Shown here: positions 3,978 to 63,964 of the stretch, in pieces | How positions within the stretch are numbered: the stretch's first letter is position 1 | How the letters are laid out: each line of letters begins with the position of its first letter | Assembly: GCA_000004985.1 (NCBI GenBank) | Contig: GG738931.1 | Source: Naegleria gruberi | Taxonomy: Eukaryota | DNA: 64,000 nt | Reading direction: 5' to 3' (one strand) | Made by a program: the position numbers and the translations under genes | Notes under the pieces: generated by a model | What the model saw: the letters and a program-made list of their open reading frames with translations, nothing else | Told to the model about the DNA's origin: nothing | Databases searched by the model: none

Positions 3978-4013
3978 TGGAGTCATAGGGAATCGAACCC
4001 TAGACCTTCTGCA

Positions 4014-4044
<31 letters not shown>

Positions 4045-4050
4045 AACCCC
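3978..4050 (-). tRNA. tRNA-Ala (anticodon UGC)
   Basis: The reverse complement folds as a canonical cloverleaf with a G3:U70 pair, anticodon loop TTTGCAT, T-loop TTCGATT and discriminator A. An oligo-T Pol III terminator follows. Confidence 0.9.
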
Positions 4051-7369: not shown

Positions 7370-7419
7370 NNNNNNNNNNNNNNNNNNNNNNNNNNNNNNN
7401 NNNNNNNNNNNNNNNNNNN
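7370..7419. other. Assembly gap (50 N)
   Basis: Run of N. Confidence 1.
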
Positions 7420-9731: not shown

Positions 9732-10592
9732 ATGATCAAGTCGTTAAATTCTGCATTAATTTATTACCTGATGATTGGTTGTTTGTTGGTTTTAATGTTA
9801 GGAACAATTCAAGATCAGCAGCAGCAACAGGGTTTTGTTTTTGGATTTTCTGTAAATATTCAAAAAGTTTCATCACAAGCAATTAATAAGAAAACATTCG
9901 TCGGATTGCATGCAAGCAATAATGGGAATGAAAGAGCTGTTAGTAATAGTGGATCTGCTGGATTGCTTGGAGGATTGTATCCATCAAACTTTTATCAACA
10001 TCCAATGATTGGATATGATTGTTTTTATGGATATACCTTTCCGAATTGTACATGCACACAGCATAGTCCACAAAAAACAGCAACAAATAAGAGGAATGAT
10101 GATTGCTATGGACCTAAATGTATGTTAGTGAAGAGTGATTCGAGGGCCACAACAGGAAATTTCACATGTGGTGTCAAGGAGAGTGATTCGGGAAATAATG
10201 CAGCCATTGTGGATTGTAGTCATAATGCAAATCCAAATACTGATAATGCTTTCTACTTTTCTGAATGCAATCCATACATTCCAAAACCTCACCACAACAG
10301 GTTCCTCAATACAACCTCAATTTTGAATTTGTTCGATCATGAATTCAGATTTGAGAGTATTGATGAAAGCAAATCCAAGACAATTGTTAAATGTCCTTTG
10401 AAGAGAACTCCAGGTTCGTTCCTTAAAGGTTATGCTGTTCAAGTGGATGTGCATGTTCATGAAGTGAGAGATGGATTCAATGATTTTGTTTGGGTTACTC
10501 ATGTTTTTTCGTGTAATAGCACTGCTATTGAACAACAAGCACCTTTGGGTGATTCAGGCTTTTTACAACTTGTTCTTGTGAAAAATAAATAG
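9732..10592 (+). CDS. Secreted cysteine-rich protein (unknown family)
   Basis: N-terminal signal peptide (MIKSLNSALIYYLMIGCLLVLMLG), a poly-Q stretch, and many Cys. The ORF is continuous. Confidence 0.5.
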   Translation: MIKSLNSALIYYLMIGCLLVLMLGTIQDQQQQQGFVFGFSVNIQKVSSQAINKKTFVGLHASNNGNERAVSNSGSAGLLGGLYPSNFYQHPMIGYDCFYGYTFPNCTCTQHSPQKTATNKRNDDCYGPKCMLVKSDSRATTGNFTCGVKESDSGNNAAIVDCSHNANPNTDNAFYFSECNPYIPKPHHNRFLNTTSILNLFDHEFRFESIDESKSKTIVKCPLKRTPGSFLKGYAVQVDVHVHEVRDGFNDFVWVTHVFSCNSTAIEQQAPLGDSGFLQLVLVKNK

Positions 10593-29930: not shown

Positions 29931-30263
29931 ATGCAAACCAGAAGTCATGATAAGAACCTCAATCAAGATGAGGAAAATCTCGAAGTTCGTGACATGAAGC
30001 ATGGCTATGTTGCTGGCGATTCATCAGAGACCCTACCAGGTGGTAGAGAGAAGGGACCTCGTGAACACTTTGAAGAAATCTGCCGAGATGAAAACTATGA
30101 AATTGAAAAGCATCATACCAATGTCAGAGGTGACTATACTGTCGTCTTTAAGCACAAGTATGGTGGTAAGGATCAAACTTTCCCTAATATTTCAAGAGAG
30201 AGAATTGAGAATATGCCATCAAGAGTTAAGGATGTCATCTTGAAGAAGAAGTCAATCTATTAA
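29931..30263 (+). CDS. Small charged hypothetical protein (110 aa)
   Basis: ORF with an A-rich start context and a codon composition GC-richer than the flanks. No recognisable domain. Confidence 0.35.
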   Translation: MQTRSHDKNLNQDEENLEVRDMKHGYVAGDSSETLPGGREKGPREHFEEICRDENYEIEKHHTNVRGDYTVVFKHKYGGKDQTFPNISRERIENMPSRVKDVILKKKSIY

Positions 30264-33892: not shown

Positions 33893-34275
33893 TCATGATG
33901 AAAGATCTAAGGTAACATAATTATTTCCTATTTCCCTGGTAGTAAGAAGAAAGAGTAGGGGTTATCTGATGAATTTGTATATGAAAGTAGTAACAAGCTT
34001 GATATTCATTACTACTGATGTCTATCAACAAAATTTCACATTGCTGATGATGTTTACATATCANNNNNNNNNNNNNNNNNNNNNNNNNNNNNNNNNNNNN
34101 NNNNNNNNNNNNNCTATCTGAAGTTCATGATGAAAGATCTAAGGTAACATAATTATTTCCTAGGTTATCTGATGAATTTGTATATGAAAGTAGTAACAAG
34201 CTTGATGATATTCATTACTACTGATGTCTATCAACAAAATTTCACAATTGATGATGTTTACATATCAATTAAACG
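33893..34275. repeat. Direct tandem duplication (~170-230 bp per copy) flanking an assembly gap: copy A 33893..34063, copy B 34114..34275, ~90% identical with a 30-bp indel
   Basis: The strings catgatgaaagatctaaggtaacataattatttcct and ggttatctgatgaatttgtatatgaaagtagtaacaagcttgat...gatgtttacatatca occur on both sides of the N-run. Confidence 0.7.
34064..34113. other. Assembly gap (50 N)
   Basis: Run of N. Confidence 1.
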
Positions 34276-44116: not shown

Positions 44117-45106
44117 TTACATAAATTGCTCAAAATCAGAATAGTGAACTACAGTATCTGAAACACCTGCAGACAATGCAGGACTAATTGTCAAAATAAC
44201 AAACAACTGGATCAATTCAGAACTTTTCAATTTTCCCATTTCTAGCTTTCTAACAATTTCCTTAAACTTTTTAATATCTAGCTTGAAACGCTTTCCACGA
44301 CCCTTTTCCATTTCGAATAAAAATTCATCAGAAGATTGGTCAGAATCTCTATAATTAATAAAAATTTTACCAGAATGATCATCCAGTCTAATAACTCCCT
44401 CAAATTTAACACTATATTCATTTCCTTTAAAATTGTAAGCAATTATTGTGAATATGGTTTTAAATAAATCGCCCACTGTTTGAGATTCGAGTTTGACAAT
44501 ATGTACAAAAGAATTGTACTTTTCAAAAATCTCTGAAAATCCTTCCCACTCTGAAAAACCACATTCAGATTCTTCCCAATAATAAACCGAATCCACCAAA
44601 TCAAAGTTTAGAGCTTTTGTTCTCTGGAATTGAATATAAATCTTAAAGTAATTTTCATCATTGTTGTCGCCATTTTCAATTCCCAAACATGATAAATACT
44701 CAGCTTTCCATGCTCCATTCAATTCTTCAAGAATAATTTGTTTCCATCTCTTGCAAATAATCAACATTTCACAAATATCATCCACTTCAAGAAATTGTAA
44801 AACATTCCACATGATATCCGAAAGATCCATCAATTTCTTCCATTCTGATTCGCAAGATGCATCTTCATAGAGTGGTACAATCTTTTTCGATGGTTTTTCA
44901 ATTATTTCCCGATCGTGGTCATGACGATTCTTTCTCTTCTTTTTAGATTTTTCTTGAATTTGTTCTAATTGTTCAATTTGTTGATGAATTTTCCTTGTTT
45001 TCCAATCAATAGCAGTGTTTAGTTTGTATTTAATTCCCTTGATGAGAAAGAAATGTTCGGATTGCTCTTGATCCATTGAAGGAGTTGCATCTTCATGTTT
45101 CTCCAT
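44117..45106 (-). CDS. F-box protein (unknown C-terminal domain); an alternative upstream ATG at 45148 is possible
   Basis: F-box LSDIMWNVLQFLEVDDICEMLIICKRWKQIILEEL. Continuous ORF. Confidence 0.5.
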   Translation of the reverse strand: MEKHEDATPSMDQEQSEHFFLIKGIKYKLNTAIDWKTRKIHQQIEQLEQIQEKSKKKRKNRHDHDREIIEKPSKKIVPLYEDASCESEWKKLMDLSDIMWNVLQFLEVDDICEMLIICKRWKQIILEELNGAWKAEYLSCLGIENGDNNDENYFKIYIQFQRTKALNFDLVDSVYYWEESECGFSEWEGFSEIFEKYNSFVHIVKLESQTVGDLFKTIFTIIAYNFKGNEYSVKFEGVIRLDDHSGKIFINYRDSDQSSDEFLFEMEKGRGKRFKLDIKKFKEIVRKLEMGKLKSSELIQLFVILTISPALSAGVSDTVVHYSDFEQFM

Positions 45107-45229
45107 TTTTTTTTGTGTGAAATGTAAAAGATTTTTCACACTTTGCATTTATGATGATTGAAAGAAGGTTACAAATTTCAAAAGTCTGGACAACTCAAGA
45201 TTCTTCAAATAATTGATTCTTTGTTTTTT

Positions 45230-48927: not shown

Positions 48928-50882
48928 TTGAATTTTAAAAAAAATAATCATCACCAACTTGTTTCCATCACCATGCGAGTGACCGTTCCTGTGGTCCATC
49001 AAGAATCAGAAATCCCTCCCGAATTCAAACATGAAGACAATGATGAATATTGGTGTTTCCTAACAAACTTTGAATTTAGGGATTCAAGAACAACTTCATT
49101 GAAGAGTCCCGAATTTATTACTGAGAAGGGAGTTTCTCTCATGTTGACTGGTTATTTACTAACACCCGAAGAATATAAATCATCTCCTGATGAGAAGGGT
49201 GAATATTTTGTCAAGATTGTTAATTTAAGACAATGGGCTTTTGACCATGAGGATGAAACGAGAGGAATTTGGGTCGAATCTAAGAGACATTGGTTTAAAT
49301 TGATAAAGCCAACAAGGGAATTTAAAGTAATTTATGAATCGTTTGAGAAGAAGAGTAATATTTGGTTGGATTTACGACCTGTATTGACGAGATGGATTAA
49401 AAAGTTTGATAAATGTTCGGATGAAGATGTGAAAGCAGTGATAAATGATTTAACAATGGAATATGTGATGAAATCCATGAAAGTGAAAGGACATAGTGAG
49501 GAGGAGCTTATTGAAAATGCATTCTTTATTCATGATAAGGCAGTTCAAGATTTTGATACCTTTTCATTTGAGGACTCGTCAGAAAATCAACTTCTTAGAA
49601 CACCTTTTATGAAGGATTTGTTGGAATTGTCTTCTGAAAAGTCTAAAATTCCCATTATTGCTAAATCTCACTCAGTTGATAAAAAGGGGAAAGAAAAACA
49701 GGTTGTGACTGAAGAGGATTTTTCCTCTGATGATGAGGATATGGATGTAAAGATTGTTATAGACGATTGTTCCTCTTCAGAGGATGATGATGATGAGGAG
49801 TACTTTGTCACAGTTAAAGCTGGCCTTGAGGATGAACATAGTAAGGATGAACATGATGATGATGATGACGACTATGAGGAAACGTTAAAGAAAAAGAGAA
49901 CGAGTTCACAAGCAGCTAAAAGAAATACACCAGAAAAGAAGAGGCCATATGCTCGTAGAACCTCTAAAAAGAGAACACCAACAAAGAATGTTGACAACTC
50001 TGAGAATCAAAAAGAGATTGAAAAAGTCACACCTAAAAAGAGAAAAGAATCGACAATTAGTAGAGAAACTAATGATGACGATGAGGATTTCAATGAAAGT
50101 GAGGAAGAATACAGTTCTGAAAATGGAAAAACCAAACAAAAACGAAGGAAATTCGAAAAACCAAGAAAGGCTACTGTTTGTTATTTCCGTGAATATACTT
50201 CACAACCTGGTGTTCCAACTATGGAGGAGCTATTGAATCAAGAATTCACACCTCGTCTTATTACACAACTCAGTACTAAATATGAACCAGGTCTTGCGAT
50301 TCCAGGTTGCTTCAATTGTCACAGAAAGAGAATTATGTGTCTTAAGGAAAGACCAATTTGTTCTCATTGTCTTGAGGATGGGCTCTATTGTGAATACCCA
50401 TCAGCGTTGAAAGTTTGTCGTAAGTATTATTTAAATTCTTCTTGTTGTTCTCACTCTAATTAGCATGCATACCGTGTTCTTTGAAATCGCAAAAGGTTTG
50501 CAATAGAGAACTTCCTTGCAATCATTGTGAGAATGGTGAATGTTATTACTTTACATCAGATAATGGATTGCTGATTGGAGAAATGAAAATTGCAGCTCTA
50601 AAAGAATTATATGCTAAGATTGATGAAGAAAAAGCTGCAAAGGAACAATCCAGTAGTGATATTCTTGATAATTTGATAAAGGAAACAGCTCAAACAGCTG
50701 AACCTGAAGAGGTTGAGATAGTTGAGGAACATAATGAAGAACTAGAAAGAAATAGAGAACGAGCAGCTGCTCTTAGAGAAGAAATCAAGAAATTGAAAAA
50801 GATTGCCCAACAAGAGACAGCTTTAAATGAAAGGAAAAAGAAAGAATTGAAAGAGATATTTAATTCTTTGAGCTCAAAGTAG
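48928..50882 (+). CDS. Nuclear protein with an acidic/basic low-complexity region, tandem Zn(2)-C6 fungal-type binuclear cluster domains and a C-terminal coiled coil; 2 exons (intron ~50424..50467)
   Basis: CFNCHRKRIMCLKERPICSHCLEDGLYC = C-x2-C-x6-C-x6-C-x2-C-x6-C. Second cluster CIPCSLKSQKVCNRELPCNHCENGEC follows a GTAAGT...TAG intron. K/R-rich NLS-like runs are present. Confidence 0.6.
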
Positions 50883-53078: not shown

Positions 53079-55499
53079 TTATTGACCTAACCAAGTGGCT
53101 AACCAATCCAAAACGGTATCATACCATAACATGCTGTTTTGAGGCTTCAAAACCCAATGGTTTTCTTCAGGGAAGACAATCATCTTGCTTGGAACACCTT
53201 GTCTTTGCAAAGCAGTGAAAACAGTCAAACCTTGAGCAATTGGGAGACTTTTGATAGGTCAGTAAAAAAATAAAGATTTTGAAATACTTACCGGAAGTCC
53301 TTACCACCATGAATAACCAAAGTTGGAGTCTTCCACTTGGTAACATGGTTGATTGGATTGAACTTTTGATAGTGTTCACTATTTGTGAATGGAGTGCCTT
53401 GGTATTCAGCTTCTGGGAACCAGAGCTCATCAGTTGAATAATAAGAACTAACCAATTCACTCAAGCCATCATGAGTGACAAAACATTTGAATCTGTTGTT
53501 TTCATTGTGACCAAGGAGCCAATTGACAGAAAAACCTCCAAAACTGGCACCAAGAGCACACATTGAATTACCATCCATAAAGCTATTAGTACTAATAAGG
53601 AAATCAGTACCCTCTATTTTGTACAAGTAATTAAAGTAGAAATTACAAGTTCAGTAAAAATAATTGAAAAAAATAACATACTTGTAATATCTTCATATGG
53701 ATAGCTTCCCCAGTTACCCAAAATAGATTCCTTGAACTTCAAGCCAAAACCATCACTGCCGTGGAAGTTAATCATAATAACAGCATAACCTTGACTGGCA
53801 AAGAGTTGTGGATTCCATCTGTAGGACCAAGAATCAGTGAAAGAACTTTCAGGTCCACCATGAATCAAGTTGGCGACCTTATACTTCTTGCCTGAATTGA
53901 AATTAGTTGGTTTGAAAACCCAAGCTTGAACACGTTCACCCAAAGCACCAATAAAGTATTGCTTTTCTGGTTTGGCCAAATTGAAAACAGCCAAGTGAGG
54001 ATTGTGATCAGTCAAATAAGCCATTCCAAAGTGATTGCTTCCACTTCTCTTAAGGAGGCAGAGTTCAGATGGCTTGATATAACTATCAAATGAGAAAATA
54101 GCACTAACACCAGGAGAAACAACAACAACTGAACCTGAATGACCTTCATTGGTGATTGGAGTAACAGTACCATTGAAACCAGTAGAAATATCGAGAAGGG
54201 ACAAAACATTGGCACCATCATTACTGTATCCAATAATCAAATGACTGGCATCGAACCAAACAATGTCACCAATGGATCTATCAAGACTTTGAGATTGAAT
54301 TGATTGATTAGTTCTATCAGTCAAAATATTGTACATGTTGACGTGAAGATTATCACTTTCATGGCCTGGCTTGGTCATTGCCAAATAGGCCAAAACTTCG
54401 TCTTGGAATGGAGAGAAGGTTGGATTTTGAGTTCTAGCTTCGGTGAAACCAGTAATCTTCTTCAATTCAGAGGTGGAAATAGGTCCAGATTGAGTATTGT
54501 AACCATAGACATCAGCAACATAAATCTTCCAACCAGTGGTCCAAGCAACTCTATGACTATTAATTTCCAAATTAATAGCAACATATCTACCAGTCTTGGA
54601 GATGTCATATTGTTCTTCACCTCCAAATGGTGGAATTGGAGAGTCAGAATCCATACCAAACATGGTATCCCAAGGTTGATCAATCAAGCTCAATGAAGAA
54701 CCAACTTTAACCTTTTGTAAAAGGACATGTGAAACCTTTCCTTCAGTGATATAATAATCCCAGTGTCTAACAAACAATTTAGTATAGACATAACCAGTGT
54801 TAGAACCCTTATTTTCCCATTCATCATTCAATTGCTTAGAGCATGATAACAATTCATTTCTATTCTTACAACTAGTGTAAACCTTAGCACTGAATGCAAT
54901 ATAAAAGACACCATTATTAACAGACTTGCTAATCTTGTATGATTCAATTGGAACATCATAATCAGTCAATCTGGCAATTTGGCTTTCATCTCCATTAACT
55001 GGAACAGAGTAAAGTTGTGGACTGTTAGCACTTCCTCTACTAGTACTCAAAAACAAGATGAATTGACCATCTGGAGTAAACTTTGGAGAGAAATCATTAC
55101 TTCCTTCCTTGAAACGAATAATCTTTCCACTTTGAATTTCCAACAATTCAAGAACAGATGTTGATTTTCCAGTCTTTGAGCTCTATTGATCAGTATGATC
55201 ATTAATAATTAAATTCCGATCAATTAATCCAATATTATTATTATCAAACAATAAATTATCATCTCTCCAAATTACTACTTTAATAAACCTACCCATTGCT
55301 TTACAGAATAAACAGCATAACGTCCATCCACTGAAACAGAAGCACCAGAAACCTTTTGCAATTCCTGAACATCTCTAATAGTAAGAACTGGAGCATCGGT
55401 TGATGATGCAGAGTACTTGGTTGAATTTACGGGAATGTTACCACCCAACACAAGCACAGCCGATAAAAGTACAACCAAGAGGGCGAATAAAACCTTCAT
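53079..55499 (-). CDS. Secreted S9 family serine peptidase (acylaminoacyl-peptidase / DPP-like, prolyl oligopeptidase fold); multi-exon
   Basis: Signal peptide MKVLFALLVVLLSAVLVLG. Beta-propeller region. Nucleophile motif GASFGG. Catalytic-His region ENHWV in the last exon (LPIAQGLTVFTALQRQGVPSKMIVFPEENHWVLKPQNSM). GTAAGT/GTAGGT introns. Confidence 0.75.
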
Positions 55500-56023: not shown

Positions 56024-57885
56024 ATGTCCAAACTCGATCTCGACTCCAAGGCCAAACAAGCCTTCGATGATGTGAGCAATTCCAAACTCACCTATGCCTT
56101 GTTGAAACACGAAGGTACCTCCAACAAGGTTATTGTTGCCTCCACCGGTGATGATATTTTGGATTTAATTGACGACTTGAATGATGGTACAATCATGTAT
56201 GCCTTGATTCGTTTCGTCATTAACGATGCTACCAAATTTGTCTATGTGGTAGGTTTTTAATTTACATCATCATGTTTATATATCACATTGCGATTAATAA
56301 TTGTTCTTATTTAAATTTAATTTTTGTGATGATCACATCGCACTCAACTGTGATGATTTTAATGAAAATATTAAAAATTTAATGATGATAATGATTGTGT
56401 GTGGAATTTAAATTTGACAACAAACACAGGGTTGGTGTCCTGAAGGTATTGCTAATCAAATCTTCAAAGGAAAGTTCCAAAACTGGAACAAGGATATGGA
56501 ATTCTATTTGTATGTTGTGTTTTCGAATAGTTGCAATTATTAACAGTTTTTACTTTCAACTTGTCAACTTATATGACATATAATTACACATCATCAAAAT
56601 GTCCAATGTGGAAAATTAATCAAATTCAACAACAAAATTTAAATTTCACAGGAAGGGAAGATACCACTTGTCAGTTTATGCTCGTAACGAAGAAGATATT
56701 GATCAAGCTTCTTGGATTAAGAAACTCAAAGTTGGTGCTGGTTCTTCCTACACACAAAGTTCAAATGCCAAGGATTTGACAATTTCACAAGCCAAGCAAA
56801 ATATTGCATCATCAAAGACCGATGTTAAAAAGACTGAAGTTGCGATTGATGACAGTGAAAGAAACAAATTCTGGGAAAAACAACAAGAAGAACTCAAGAA
56901 ACAAGAAGAAAAGAAGAAGCTCCCACCACCAAGATCTGACTATAAAAAGACAGATGAAAGAAATCAATTCTGGCAAGGTCAAAGTACCTCCACAACTAGT
57001 GGATCCACTGTTGTGAAGAGTAGTGATCGTATTAGTGAAATTCAACAAATCAAGAATAATAGTAATCAATTTTGGCAAAAGCAACAAGAACAACCAGTTC
57101 CAGAATCTGACAACAAACCAAAGGAAGTTGTTCGTGGAAACAAGGATTTGTTCAAAAAGTTCGAAAGCATGAGTGTTAAAACTGAAGAATCAAAACCTGT
57201 TGCCAGACAACCAATTTCAACTGGTGCTGCCAAGAAGCCAGTTTTCCAACCAAAGCACGAAGAACCAGTTTATGAGGAACCACAACATCATTATGAAGAA
57301 CCAGTTCAAGAAGAATCTCACTATGAACACTATGAAGAACCACAACAAGAAGAATCTCACTATGAGGAGCCACCACAACAAACTTATCATCAACCAAGAG
57401 TTCCACCTCCATTCCATCAACCACGTTATGATTCCGAAGAAGAAGAAGAGCCAGAACAAGAACCAGAACCTGTTCAAGAACCAGTTAACAATAAGCCATC
57501 TAAACCAAAAGGGTATGTTTTATTCAATAATTGATTACTGACATTTTAATAGATATTTGGAAAGACAAGTTGAACAAGGAAATATTTCTCCATCTCAAGC
57601 TGAAGAAATTATTGCAAAGCCAACCAAACTTCCACCTCCTCCAGTTCCAACCAAACCAAAGTATCCTGAATTGGTTGCTGTTTTTGATTTTGAGTAAGTA
57701 TTTTAAATATTTTGAAATTTGATTTTTTAACACATTACAACAGAGGTCAAGATGGTGAAGAACTTTCATTCGCTGAAGGTGATACCCTCTATCTCGTTCA
57801 AGATGAAGGTGAATGGTGGTTAGCTGAAGATACCAATGGTCAACAAGGTTACATTCCTTCAAACTATGTTGAATATAAAGAATAG
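56024..57885 (+). CDS. Abp1/drebrin-like actin-binding protein (N-terminal ADF-H domain, central charged/Pro-rich region, C-terminal SH3); 5 exons
   Basis: N-terminal ADF-H-like exon [17 protein letters not shown]...[18 protein letters not shown]. Central repeats of EEPQ/HYEEP. C-terminal SH3 after two short introns: [10 protein letters not shown]|[46 protein letters not shown]. Confidence 0.65.
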
Positions 57886-59327: not shown

Positions 59328-59931
59328 TTCGATGAATTCTGCTTAACTACCTTAATACACTTTGCGATTGAAAATAAAGAGAATCTTCTGTTTTAAATAA
59401 TGACGCCACTGCTGCTAATAGTGAATGTCTTGTTTTCTCACTTTTTTTTCTTCGTTTAATACTTATTAAAGCTCTATCATTTACAGATATAGATTCGCAT
59501 TATTAATTGTGCACAGAATCGTTCCATGTTTGGTGCTATGATAAACGACTATTGTACATCTGACGCAGCAAAAGCAATGTATGCTGTGGTAGAATATATT
59601 TTCCGTTTTATATTAAGGTTACAGAAACCCGATAATGATTGAAAGGAGGTTATTATAACTTTTGTTGATAGAAGCAAAATTTTGACAGAAAAATCAACAA
59701 ATCGTTGATGCAAGTATGAAAATTCTTTATTTCCAAACATGAAACAGTGTTGAATGATTCTTGTCTTTATGCGTATTGTCAGCATCTAAATTGTCAACTT
59801 ATTACAGACCTCAATAAAGGAAATGAGCTTTGACAAAAAACCTGAGAAATTGCTCAGTTACTTTTTTGAATGTAGGATTTTTAATTATTAAAATTCACAA
59901 AGCAATCGCTTGCAAGCTTTGTAGTTTTTTT

Positions 59932-60186
59932 ATAGTAGTGATGTGGTTTTGTTGAAAAGATGAATACCGATGATAGCTCAGCTGGTAGAGCATGGGACTG
60001 TAGCAAGAAAAACTGTCATCCTGTGGTCGGCGGTTCGATTCCGTCTCATCGGATACTTTTACCACACAAAGCAATTAATCAATTTTAATTATGACACTTG
60101 TTCAATCGAATTTTTAAGACACTTCTGCTTATTGTACAGTTTTGAATTCTATAAGATCCACATAACTCAAATTTTCTAAGCGAATA
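59932..60186 (+). repeat. Inverted-repeat copy 1: tRNA-Tyr plus ~35 bp upstream and ~135 bp downstream flank
   Basis: Homologous in inverted orientation to 62442..62675. The tRNA part is identical; the flanks are ~85-90% identical, with a 27-bp indel. Confidence 0.8.
59967..60053 (+). tRNA. tRNA-Tyr (anticodon GUA) with a 14-nt intron (60004..60017)
   Basis: CCGATGA acceptor, D-arm GCTC-AGCTGGTA-GAGC, anticodon loop CTGTAG|intron|A, variable loop TGGTC, T-loop TTCGATT, discriminator A. A TTTT terminator lies downstream. Confidence 0.85.
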
Positions 60187-60252
60187 TAAATAATTTTGTT
60201 TTAAGAAAAATGTATTATCTTCAGTACAGTTTACGTTTTACTTTTAAAAAAA

Positions 60253-61083
60253 ATGCTATGGGTAGAAATGGAGGTGGACATCCCACCAAAACAACAAGCA
60301 AAAAGAACACTCAAAGCCTTCGCTAAAATAATTCAGGTAAGGTGCCAAATAAGAAGACAATTTGACACAAGGCCAAAACAAATTGTTGGAGACAATATAG
60401 TGTCAGCAGCTAGATCAACGATCCTTGTTTATGTTGAGACAAACTCTAGAACAAAACTGGAAAATTTTTTGTTGGCTACTTACCACGCCTTCAAAAGATA
60501 TTCCCTGTTGTTTATTGCTGATACTCAAAACCAACATATAAGACAATCTGTTATACAGGCTCCTAGAAACCCTCCCACTAGTGGTAACGAAGACAGCAGT
60601 GACGATACCACATCTATCAAGAGCATTTCACTACCTGTACAAACAAATAATTCGCCCAGTAACAGTACTGATACTAAATGGGCTTTATTAGAAGCCTATT
60701 TAATTGAGTTGAAAAGAGTTCCTTCTGGCTCGGAATCAGGCAATATTTCTTCAAGTTACAACTTAAATCCAACAGAAGAAATTATTCATGATACCCATAA
60801 AAACAAACCAAAAGTTACATCACCACCAAAACCAATCAAACATTCTCCAACCCTACAAAGAGCTGTGATACATTTCAAATGGANNNNNNNNNNNNNNNNN
60901 NNNNNNNNNNNNNNNNNNNNNNNNNNNNNNNNNTTGGAGAATGTTTTGGATGCATTGATTAGATTTAATGGAGATGATGAAGCCAAGATTGGATATGCTT
61001 TTGAAAAACTAAGACTAAAAGATGACAGAACCGCAAAATCCATTACAAGATGGTTGTTTTCAACCTTATTGACTAAAGATTAG
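60253..61083 (+). CDS. Hypothetical protein; the CDS is interrupted by an assembly gap
   Basis: ORF with an A-rich start context. Contains a run of X from the N-gap. Confidence 0.4.
   Translation: MLWVEMEVDIPPKQQAKRTLKAFAKIIQVRCQIRRQFDTRPKQIVGDNIVSAARSTILVYVETNSRTKLENFLLATYHAFKRYSLLFIADTQNQHIRQSVIQAPRNPPTSGNEDSSDDTTSIKSISLPVQTNNSPSNSTDTKWALLEAYLIELKRVPSGSESGNISSSYNLNPTEEIIHDTHKNKPKVTSPPKPIKHSPTLQRAVIHFKWXXXXXXXXXXXXXXXXXLENVLDALIRFNGDDEAKIGYAFEKLRLKDDRTAKSITRWLFSTLLTKD
60884..60933. other. Assembly gap (50 N)
   Basis: Run of N. Confidence 1.
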
Positions 61084-61770: not shown

Positions 61771-61889
61771 GGCTACGGCCATATCACGATGAATGCACCT
61801 CATCCCGTCCTATTTGAGAAGTTAAGCATCGTCGAGCCACATCAGTACTGAGGTTGGAGACAACTTGGGAACCTGTGGTGCTGTAGTCT
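61771..61889 (+). rRNA. 5S ribosomal RNA gene
   Basis: GGCTACGGCCATA...CATCCCGTCC...GAGAAGTTAAGC...GTACTGAGGTTGGAGACAAC...GGGAAC...GGTGCTGTAGTC matches the universal 5S consensus blocks. Helix I termini are complementary. A T5 terminator follows. Confidence 0.85.
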
Positions 61890-62148
61890 TTTTGGCTTTT
61901 GAAAACTGATAACTTTATTGAAATAATCCTTTTTTTATTTTCCTATAAACAACATGCTCATTCATCATTACAAAACATGAACCAAGTTTGTGTCTAGAAA
62001 CAAAAATTAGTTCATGACAGAATTTGTTTTGCAAGTCTGATCAGAACAGAACTACTTTCTTAAAATATAAATTTCTTTTCATGAGAATAAAAAACAATGA
62101 AGGTGGTTTGAAATCAAACAATAAGAAAAAAACAAAACGAACAACATA

Positions 62149-62379
62149 ATGCAATTATTTGTCAAAACACTCACTGGAAGAACTATCACTTTGGAAGTTG
62201 AATCTAATGATTCAATTGAAAATGTGAAAAGAAAAGTACAAGATAAGGAAGGAATTTCACCAGATCAACAAAGACTCATCTTTGGTGGAAAACAATTGGA
62301 AGATGGAAGAACTATTGGTGATTACAATCTTCAAAAGGATTCAACTCTTCATTTAGTATTGAGATTGAGAGGTGGTTGA
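62149..62379 (+). CDS. Monomeric ubiquitin variant (76 aa, ~83% identical to canonical ubiquitin; free C-terminal GG followed by a stop)
   Basis: [76 protein letters not shown] differs from canonical ubiquitin at 13 positions, including K11R. K48 and K63 are retained. Confidence 0.75.
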
Positions 62380-62441: not shown

Positions 62442-62675
62442 GGAATGTTCGCTTAGAAAATTTGAGTTAGGTGGATCTAATAGAATTCAAAACTGTAAAA
62501 TAAGCAGAAGTGTCATAAAAATTCGATTAATTGCTTTGTGTGGTAAAAGTATCCGATGAGACGGAATCGAACCGCCGACCACAGGATGACAGTTTTTCTT
62601 GCTACAGTCCCATGCTCTACCAGCTGAGCTATCATCGGTATTCATCTGTTCTAAAAAACCACACAACTACTATCA
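62442..62675 (-). repeat. Inverted-repeat copy 2 of the tRNA-Tyr locus (lacks a 27-bp segment present in copy 1)
   Basis: Reverse complement of 59932..60186. Confidence 0.8.
62552..62638 (-). tRNA. tRNA-Tyr (GUA) with a 14-nt intron, identical to the copy at 59967..60053
   Basis: The reverse complement is base-for-base identical to the plus-strand tRNA-Tyr, including the intron caagaaaaactgtc. Confidence 0.85.
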
Positions 62676-62869
62676 AAAATTTCTCTGTAATTTGTTTAAT
62701 GGCTTCTCAATGAAGAAACCTAACCGGCACAGTATTTGGCCCAATCAAATTATTATAATTCTCCAGTTAAATAATCAACATCCATTACTTTAGAACTCAG
62801 CTTGCTGTTGGGGCCCAAATTATTTTGTTTCTCAAACGAAAAAAATACCAACAAATACGAATCCACAAG

Positions 62870-63964
62870 ATGAAACTATTCGCCAAATCTTCCACACTTG
62901 ATCAAGCACCACTTGAAAGACTTTGTGATGATGAATTCCATAATATTTTTGAATATACAAACATCAAGGAGGATAGAGAAGCAAATTTTAACATTTCATT
63001 GGTGAACAAACGATTAAACAAATTGGCTTCCTCCGATTTGTATTGGAAATTCATTCTTCATCATTATCCTAATCAAGAGGAAATTAAGCAACTTTCTTCT
63101 CCTTTGAAATCCAATCTAATAGAAACAAGAAAGAAGAAATTCTTGAAATTCGATACTTCACTAATTCAATATTTATCAGCGCCTCCTTTTCTTTTATTTC
63201 TTTTACTGATTGCATTCTTATTTGTCATGTCAATAATTTTCATTCCAGTGGCATATTTCACTTTCAAAGATTTTGTCTGTTATAGAAAGTTAATTTCCAA
63301 ACAAACTATTCAATTATTTAACACTTCACCATTGAATGGAACTTGTGTTTATTGTAATGTTTCTAATAATGATCATTTGAATGAGAAATTGGATATTGTT
63401 GAGTGTAATTTCACAATGAGTGGAGATCCCCTTTCATATCCATGTTGCATGAAAGAGAAGAATTGCATCTATGACAAGTATCCACTCAACATGTCTTCTT
63501 TTCGATATGAAATACAGAGCTATGGAATTCAAAAAGGTAAAACCATGTTCAATTCCACCTATTTCTATGATTGCCTCGATATGGAATGTCAACCCAGCAA
63601 ATACCAAGATTATTACACATATTGCCTCTCTCAAAAAAAACCAGGTGAATTCGAAATAGATACAATATCATTACCTATCTTGTCATTCATAATGATTGGT
63701 TGTACTGTTGTCATTGTATTGATTCCATTTCTCGCTATTATTGCTCATTATTGTTTATTGCCATTTTCAAAGAGTTTGTTTTTTTGTTTGTATTGGAGAA
63801 GTTGTTTTTCAGAGGAAATTGACAAGACACATGTGAAATTGGACACAAGAAAACGAAATGGATGTTCATCTTTCTGGTTGAGTTTGTTTTTGTGGCATTT
63901 GAATATGGCAAATGTTTACATACGTATTGAAAAGGAAGAACAAACTTCAAAAGAAGAGATTTAG
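62870..63964 (+). CDS. Membrane protein with an F-box-like N-terminus, two hydrophobic segments and a Cys-rich ectodomain-like region (hypothetical)
   Basis: First true ATG at 62870, after an A-run. LERLCDDEFHNIFEYT...LVNKRLNKLASSDLYWKFIL is F-box-like. Hydrophobic segments LLFLLLIAFLFVMSIIFIPVAYF and ILSFIMIGCTVVIVLIPFLAIIAHYCLL. Confidence 0.45.
   Translation: MKLFAKSSTLDQAPLERLCDDEFHNIFEYTNIKEDREANFNISLVNKRLNKLASSDLYWKFILHHYPNQEEIKQLSSPLKSNLIETRKKKFLKFDTSLIQYLSAPPFLLFLLLIAFLFVMSIIFIPVAYFTFKDFVCYRKLISKQTIQLFNTSPLNGTCVYCNVSNNDHLNEKLDIVECNFTMSGDPLSYPCCMKEKNCIYDKYPLNMSSFRYEIQSYGIQKGKTMFNSTYFYDCLDMECQPSKYQDYYTYCLSQKKPGEFEIDTISLPILSFIMIGCTVVIVLIPFLAIIAHYCLLPFSKSLFFCLYWRSCFSEEIDKTHVKLDTRKRNGCSSFWLSLFLWHLNMANVYIRIEKEEQTSKEEI

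Follow-up and report, generated by a model that had tools for sequence, protein, structure and literature searches.

A diverged, stand-alone ubiquitin monomer lacking lysine 11 in Naegleria gruberi, one member of an apparently species-restricted family of variant units

Introduction

Few proteins are as conserved as ubiquitin, which has about three differences between the yeast and human sequences and in its canonical form is encoded as a repeat array (UBI4, UBB, and UBC) or as a fusion to a ribosomal protein (Ub-eL40 and Ub-eS31). Because it is so conserved, natural variants that survive show which parts of its surface tolerate useful change. Residue 72, which is arginine in ubiquitin and alanine in NEDD8 (Rub1), is a determinant of E1 (Uba1) specificity. 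Stand-alone ubiquitin monomers are often carried by giant viruses.

A ubiquitin variant encoded outside the canonical loci is UbKEKS, which derives from human UBBP4, carries four changes (Q2K, K33E, Q49K, and N60S), and has been shown experimentally to be expressed and conjugated (Dubois et al. 2020, PMC7066184). Deep mutational scanning of ubiquitin in yeast found only R42, I44, K48, G75, and G76 to be sensitive under control (DMSO) conditions, and K11R was of high fitness in that system (PMC4862753). Canonical ubiquitin is present in the genus Naegleria, where the polyubiquitin of N. fowleri (PDB 5VIX) is reported to be 96% identical to human ubiquitin (PMC7990177).

Here, we describe a ubiquitin-like open reading frame (ORF) in a 64,000-nucleotide (nt) stretch of the Naegleria gruberi contig GG738931.1 (this whole stretch is termed the window herein; its G+C content is 33%). 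A sequence-only reading of the window had proposed that the ORF is a free-standing ubiquitin monomer so diverged that it must be either a specialized modifier or a decaying copy. We compared the ORF with canonical ubiquitin, with NEDD8 and UbKEKS, and with ubiquitin-like units from Naegleria species, viruses, and metagenomes, and we lean toward the view that it is a functional nuclear gene of N. gruberi that is under selection and encodes a ready-made ubiquitin variant belonging to a small family with two types of unit, here called type A and type B.

Results and Discussion

The ORF comprises a single ubiquitin unit

The coding sequence is located at positions 62149 to 62379 on the plus strand and consists of 76 codons and a TGA stop codon, an assignment that draws on translation, a Pfam match, an exact sequence look-up, structure prediction and comparison with AlphaFold2 and Foldseek, and codon usage. 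Its translation starts with ATG-Gln and ends with LRLRGG-TGA, in agreement with the earlier description of a 76-codon ORF that ends in LRLRGG and is directly followed by a stop. The ORF is bounded by an in-frame TAA codon at positions 62122 to 62124 (plus strand), nine codons 5′ of the ATG in the translation of positions 62089 to 62160, so that, if there is no intron, it is exactly one ubiquitin unit. A tblastn search of the 64-kb window found no second ubiquitin-like stretch. In contrast to canonical ubiquitin, which is encoded as a repeat array or a ribosomal fusion, the variant is a free monomer with the stop codon right after the GG; neither a polyubiquitin array nor an eL40 or eS31 fusion is encoded by the ORF.

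The exact look-up showed that the protein equals N. gruberi NAEGRDRAFT_44880 (XP_002669132.1, EFC36388.1, and UniProt D2W3I3), which is annotated as "predicted protein." The gene model is thus already public, but it is uncharacterized and unnamed, and its accessions are not mentioned in the searchable literature. Among the covered rows of a published N. gruberi proteomics table (PMC9035749), the canonical polyubiquitin XP_002669208.1 is listed and the accession of NAEGRDRAFT_44880 is not. The practical value of recognizing this uncharacterized paralogue in the public annotation is modest: NAEGRDRAFT_44880 could receive the name "ubiquitin variant," and in Naegleria proteomics its unique tryptic peptides are to be separated from those of canonical ubiquitin.

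The protein has the hallmarks of ubiquitin and 13 replacements

The protein shares 63 of 76 residues (82.9%) with ubiquitin from human, yeast, or plant, with 13 differences against each of these references, compared with only about 3 between the canonical yeast and human proteins. The earlier count of 13 changed residues and 83% identity is therefore correct for every single reference. The accompanying list of substitutions, however, had mixed its references, as D24E is a difference from yeast and plant ubiquitin, A28R is a difference from human and plant ubiquitin, and the 13th difference from human ubiquitin is P19S. Twelve positions differ from both the human and the yeast sequences (L3, R11, N20, S22, R28, V30, S37, G46, I56, G57, L61, and D64). 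The near-invariance of ubiquitin, with about 96 to 100% identity across eukaryotes and all seven lysines present, does not extend to this protein: K11 is replaced by arginine, and K6, K27, K29, K33, K48, and K63 are retained. Translation thus bears out the earlier statement that K11 is lost and that K48 and K63 are kept.

Retained residues also include M1, F4, L8, I36, R42, I44, H68, V70, and the C-terminal L71-R72-L73-R74-G75-G76. The variant shares with canonical ubiquitin its length of 76 residues, the beta-grasp fold, the LRLRGG end, the L8/I44/V70 patch together with H68, and residues R42, R72, K48, and K63, and in these sequence features it agrees with ubiquitin in the strict sense. All five residues found to be sensitive in yeast (R42, I44, K48, G75, and G76) are unchanged. 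In terms of the known ubiquitin structure, the replacements are conservative swaps in the core (I3L, I30V, L56I, and I61L) or are located on loops or on the exposed side of the helix.

Membership in the ubiquitin family is evident from both the sequence profile and the predicted fold. The Pfam ubiquitin profile PF00240 matches residues 3 to 74 (E = 7.3e-30), and the top sequence matches in the PDB are ubiquitins. The AlphaFold2 model (pLDDT of 92.9) has the order beta-beta-alpha-beta-beta-3(10)-beta, and its top Foldseek matches are ubiquitin, with a TM score of 0.97 and a root mean square deviation of 0.8 Å.

NEDD8/Rub1 and the variant are alike in being 76-residue beta-grasp modifiers with an RGG end. 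We rejected an identity as NEDD8, as the variant is 53% identical to human NEDD8 versus 83% identical to ubiquitin, and its residue 72 is the arginine of ubiquitin (R72) instead of the A72 of NEDD8. UbKEKS and the variant have in common an intact, ubiquitin-derived ORF at a dispersed locus outside the canonical ones, the presence of substitutions, an intact GG end, and the question of whether the locus is a pseudogene or functional. They differ in that UbKEKS has 4 changes and experimentally shown expression and conjugation, whereas the variant has 13 different changes and its expression and conjugation are predicted.

Type A and type B units form a family in N. gruberi

A homologue search with the full 76-amino-acid (aa) sequence was dominated by two-domain fragments of polyubiquitin. 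In a second search, a 46-aa fragment was used as the query and matches were listed up to approximately 1.75 times the query length, so that this search covers single-unit proteins only; the closest among the matches listed was 85% identical over the fragment.

Closer relatives of the variant are encoded on other scaffolds of N. gruberi. In NAEGRDRAFT_60573 (XP_002677982.1, 115 aa), residues 1 to 43 are identical to the variant at 43 of 43 positions, and in NAEGRDRAFT_32234 (XP_002679408.1, 129 aa), residues 1 to 49 are identical at 46 of 49. Residues R11, N20, S22, R28, V30, and S37 are common to all three proteins and mark the type A unit. NAEGRDRAFT_60573 and NAEGRDRAFT_32234 are two-unit A-B models, in which the second unit (type B) is diverged in a different way: K11 is kept, L3, I56, L61, and D64 are held in common with the variant, and the motif [GN]DYNLQKD[AS] is present. 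One of the two models carries the tail NPWAAFSY after the GG. Each of them is without about 30 codons of one unit, and one is also without 7 codons; the omissions of about 30 codons may be due to modelling error or mis-modelled introns, or may mark damaged copies, and given these omissions, the family of diverged units may include decaying members.

Because type A recurs at two other N. gruberi loci, the variant is not unique and is one member of a lineage-specific family, and as part of a small family of variants it is a rather ordinary paralogue of ubiquitin. In the data searched, the type A/type B family appears to be confined to N. gruberi.

The recurrence of type A also bears on the earlier concern that the differences might be assembly errors. 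The scaffold is a draft, and three gaps of 50 N interrupt the window, the nearest of which lies 1.2 kb upstream of the ORF, as might be expected if errors of sequencing or assembly had turned a canonical ubiquitin gene into the variant. We consider such an artefact extremely improbable: the 13 amino acid differences are located within a clean reading frame, and two further scaffolds carry the same variant sequence, each in an independent gene model. Since residues 1 to 43 recur identically in NAEGRDRAFT_60573, assembly error is excluded as their source, and the concern was not borne out.

Stand-alone ubiquitin-like monomers of 78 aa are encoded in N. fowleri (FDP41_002523) and N. lovaniensis (C9374_012429), and the statement of the sequence-only reading that ubiquitin is normally encoded as polyubiquitin or as a ribosomal fusion was therefore too strong. 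These two monomers are one residue apart, and either of them has seven to eight differences from yeast ubiquitin. They are like the variant in being single-unit genes, in carrying N20, S22/T22, E24, and D64, and in having position 61 altered as well. They are identical to the variant at 64 of 76 residues and to canonical ubiquitin at 68 to 69 of 76. Unlike the variant, they keep K11, I3, I30, and P37 and carry A32, A38, and S60, and they end in GG-SL, a tail that requires processing, whereas the variant ends in GG-stop. FDP41_002523 is located on N. fowleri VFQX01000029.1 (positions 10001 to 10237 of the retrieved locus), adjoining a glycosyl hydrolase family 1 gene.

Viral and metagenomic ubiquitin units lack the variant residues

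Ubiquitin units occur on hundreds of IMG/VR contigs, many of them bearing a giant-virus bin label, and this could suggest that the gene was acquired from a giant virus or another foreign source. The best of these units are identical to the variant at 65 of 76 residues and are always nearer to canonical ubiquitin than to the variant; they carry no more than 3 of the 12 variant residues, never including R11, R28, or I56. A degenerate DNA pattern for the hallmark KRKVQ[DE]KEGIS was without a match in IMG/VR. The flanks of the ORF are host 5S rRNA and tRNA genes, its codon usage is of the host type, and its nearest relatives are the N. gruberi paralogues described above. A foreign acquisition is therefore very improbable in our estimate, and viral ubiquitin was rejected as an identity on the basis of the host flanks, the small number of variant residues in viral units, and the missing hallmark pattern. 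Degenerate DNA patterns for KRKVQ[DE]KEGIS and GRTI[GN]DYNLQKD had no match in the JGI metagenomes.

The gene shows signs of selective maintenance

A neutral point-mutation simulation was run up to 13 replacements, and 16 functionally critical residues were tracked. The reading frame survived in 29 to 30% of the runs, and approximately 1% of the runs additionally spared the 16 critical residues. The mean BLOSUM62 score of the observed replacements is +0.92 to +1.15 versus a simulated mean of −0.7, and only 0.015 to 0.085% of the neutral runs attained the observed mean.

A dN/dS comparison of the kind proposed earlier was run pairwise against the coding sequence of the N. fowleri monomer, which is a possible orthologue of the variant. 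Third positions differ in 40 of 76 codons, pS is 0.78 (saturated), and dN is 0.11. Since this pairwise comparison spans two lineages, it is compatible with a gene that was silenced recently in the N. gruberi lineage. The codons of the variant are those preferred by the host (AGA, 6 of 6; CAA, 6 of 6; and GAT, 6 of 6), and within positions 62149 to 62379, the coding score is highest in the annotated frame. The features of a pseudogene, either disabling mutations or a neutral pattern of change with radical replacements and a dN/dS of about 1, were not observed, and there is no stop or frameshift within the ORF.

Because paralogous units exist, the replacements are conservative, synonymous sites are saturated with a low dN, the codons are typical of the host, and the predicted fold is that of ubiquitin, a lone decaying copy appears unlikely, and the gene looks selectively maintained. 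A nonfunctional duplicate could still take the form of a diverged ubiquitin unit that was copied to a dispersed site, has fallen silent, and has not yet acquired a stop or a frameshift. Such a copy might well stand alone in a spacer between duplicated tRNA genes and next to an assembly gap, have no positional orthologue in related genera (at the loci compared in N. fowleri and Willaertia), be related to gene models that appear truncated or spliced around about 30 codons, and be seen neither in the literature search nor in the covered part of the proteomics table, all of which applies here. The exact ORF boundaries, with the ATG-Gln start and the GG-stop end, do not fit this explanation, nor do a substitution pattern that is incompatible with neutral drift from canonical ubiquitin, a codon usage that is optimal for the host, and the unchanged critical residues. 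Judged from the sequence comparisons combined, these points exclude long-standing neutral decay and are still compatible with very recent silencing, and we regard a nonfunctional duplicate as rather doubtful.

The two options offered by the sequence-only reading thus fared differently. A decaying copy is disfavored by the intact ORF, the conservative pattern of change, the low dN, the paralogues, and the host codons, and for a specialized modifier, no sign of separate enzymes or targets was seen, and R72 together with the unchanged hydrophobic patch predicts use of the ordinary ubiquitin E1.

Predicted use of the variant in ubiquitin conjugation

If the gene is functional and under selection, as we favor, its product would need no C-terminal processing by a deubiquitinase, since the stop codon directly follows Gly76. 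Ordinary E1 charging and conjugation are predicted because R72, R42, the L8/I44/V70/H68 patch, I36/L71/L73, and the GG end are all present. The usual E1 for ubiquitin would activate the variant, E2 and E3 enzymes would take it over and transfer it to substrates, and it would be expected to build or accept K48 and K63 chains. With arginine at position 11, it cannot accept K11 linkages, and a variant molecule within a chain would therefore allow no extension or branching via K11. The earlier suggestion that the loss of K11 would alter chain topology is correct in this sense, conditional on conjugation. The variant would then either top up the ubiquitin pool or mark distinct targets in the manner of UbKEKS. 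We infer its transcription, its use by E1 and E2, its conjugation, and its effect on chains, whereas the intact ORF, its identity, the predicted fold, the family, the conservative replacements, and the retained critical residues are observed.

It is possible, if unlikely, that the protein is a specialized modifier, that is, that it is expressed and conjugated and that its altered surface (R11, R28, S37, G46, and G57) causes it to be written, read, or erased differently and to mark distinct targets, as for UbKEKS. Given the known structure of ubiquitin, P37S and A46G border the recognition patches of I36 and I44, and the derived residues have been retained at three N. gruberi loci. With 13 differences, compared with the 96% identity to human ubiquitin reported for the polyubiquitin of N. 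fowleri (PMC7990177), the variant stands clearly apart from the housekeeping form, and a ubiquitin variant with its own targets has a precedent (PMC7066184). However, the neighbors of the gene are 5S rRNA, tRNA-Tyr, and unannotated ORFs, with no dedicated enzyme or partner linked to it; the determinants for ordinary E1 use and the hydrophobic patch are all unchanged; and the majority of the changes are on the mutation-tolerant face of ubiquitin.

A more speculative proposal, which we consider quite doubtful, is that the K11-less type A units and the type B units, present as a monomer and as A-B tandems at at least three loci, constitute a parallel ubiquitin code, in which a conjugatable modifier caps K11 linkages or keeps them out and is recognized in another way than the housekeeping form. 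If it is expressed and conjugated, the K11-less variant would provide a natural experiment, set in a deep-branching eukaryote, on the role that K11 chains play.

Genomic surroundings of the variant gene

Upstream of the ORF, a full-length 5S rRNA gene (positions 61771 to 61889, plus strand; Rfam RF00001, 97.6 bits) is followed by a run of five T residues. The A-rich spacer between the 5S gene and the ATG (positions 61890 to 62148, plus strand; approximately 259 to 260 nt) presumably contains the promoter and the 5′ untranslated region, as judged from reading the sequence. 5S genes are dispersed in the N. gruberi genome. Linkage of 5S and ubiquitin genes has been reported in Tetrahymena; a literature text search for this linkage found no paper.

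The ORF is flanked by the two arms of an inverted repeat, which were identified by a repeat search and an alignment of the arms. The left arm (positions 59926 to 60187) contains an intron-bearing tRNA gene at positions 59967 to 60053 (plus strand; Rfam tRNA, 54.8 bits), which was also folded, and the right arm (positions 62445 to 62679) contains a second copy at positions 62552 to 62638 (minus strand; Rfam tRNA, 54.8 bits). Both 87-nt genes are tRNA-Tyr(GUA) genes on direct reading, because they have the GUA anticodon and an intron; both were missed by ARAGORN in bacterial mode. The arms (about 250 nt) are 94 to 95% complementary with a 27-nt indel between them, similarity stops at the arm borders, and the duplication includes approximately 90 to 130 nt of flank on either side of the tRNA gene. 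The ORF had been described as lying inside the tRNA-Tyr inverted repeat, which holds only in the sense that it is located between the arms: it is in a unique spacer of 2.26 kb, its stop codon is 65 nt before the right arm, and the ORF itself is not part of the repeated sequence. We judge the gaps of 65 to 66 nt from each arm to the nearest ORF to be a coincidence, and the evidence suggests that the inverted repeat is context, with nothing pointing to a role in the ubiquitin gene.

Synteny was examined at the N. fowleri monomer locus and at loci orthologous to an S9 peptidase gene of the window (positions 53079 to 55391, minus strand). The S9 peptidase is 100% identical to an N. gruberi protein encoded on the 138,333-bp scaffold of NAEGRDRAFT_44880, and an orthologue with 59% identity is present in N. 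fowleri and one with 54% identity in Willaertia magna. Between the N. fowleri monomer locus and the window, the ubiquitin ORF alone matches, and no ubiquitin, tRNA, or 5S gene is present within 10 kb at the S9 peptidase loci of N. fowleri and W. magna. A syntenic orthologue of the variant was thus not found in N. fowleri or Willaertia at the monomer and S9 peptidase loci compared, and because the order of 5S gene, ubiquitin variant, and tRNA-Tyr is absent from them, this order is specific to N. gruberi at this position. A COMM-domain gene downstream of the S9 peptidase gene is common to N. fowleri and Willaertia, and conserved neighbors are absent in N. gruberi. Positions 30027 to 30206 of the window match a 90-aa gene near the Willaertia S9 orthologue with 63% amino acid identity and may represent a remnant of synteny.

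Several further features of the window were recorded. Its three scaffold gaps, of exactly 50 N each, are at positions 7370 to 7419, 34064 to 34113, and 60884 to 60933, and the last of these interrupts an unannotated ORF of 276 codons (positions 60253 to 61083) located between the repeat arms. The first ORF downstream of the ubiquitin variant (positions 62825 to 63964, plus strand) has a subthreshold F-box match (E = 0.0037; 17.6 bits versus a cutoff of 20.5 bits), and an ORF 17 kb upstream (positions 44117 to 45148, minus strand) has a borderline F-box match (E = 6e-4); the occurrence of such matches near the variant is probably a coincidence in an F-box-rich genome. In the ORF at positions 48928 to 50463 (plus strand), a DNMT1-RFD domain (E = 8e-9) occurs together with a fungal-type Zn(2)-Cys(6) binuclear cluster (E = 9e-6), a pairing that is unusual outside fungi. 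Degenerate repeats of approximately 36 to 39 nt that are rich in Y/H-E-E-P form an acidic low-complexity region in the ORF at positions 56668 to 57534 (plus strand), and an intronless tRNA-Ala(UGC) gene is located at positions 3978 to 4050 (minus strand).
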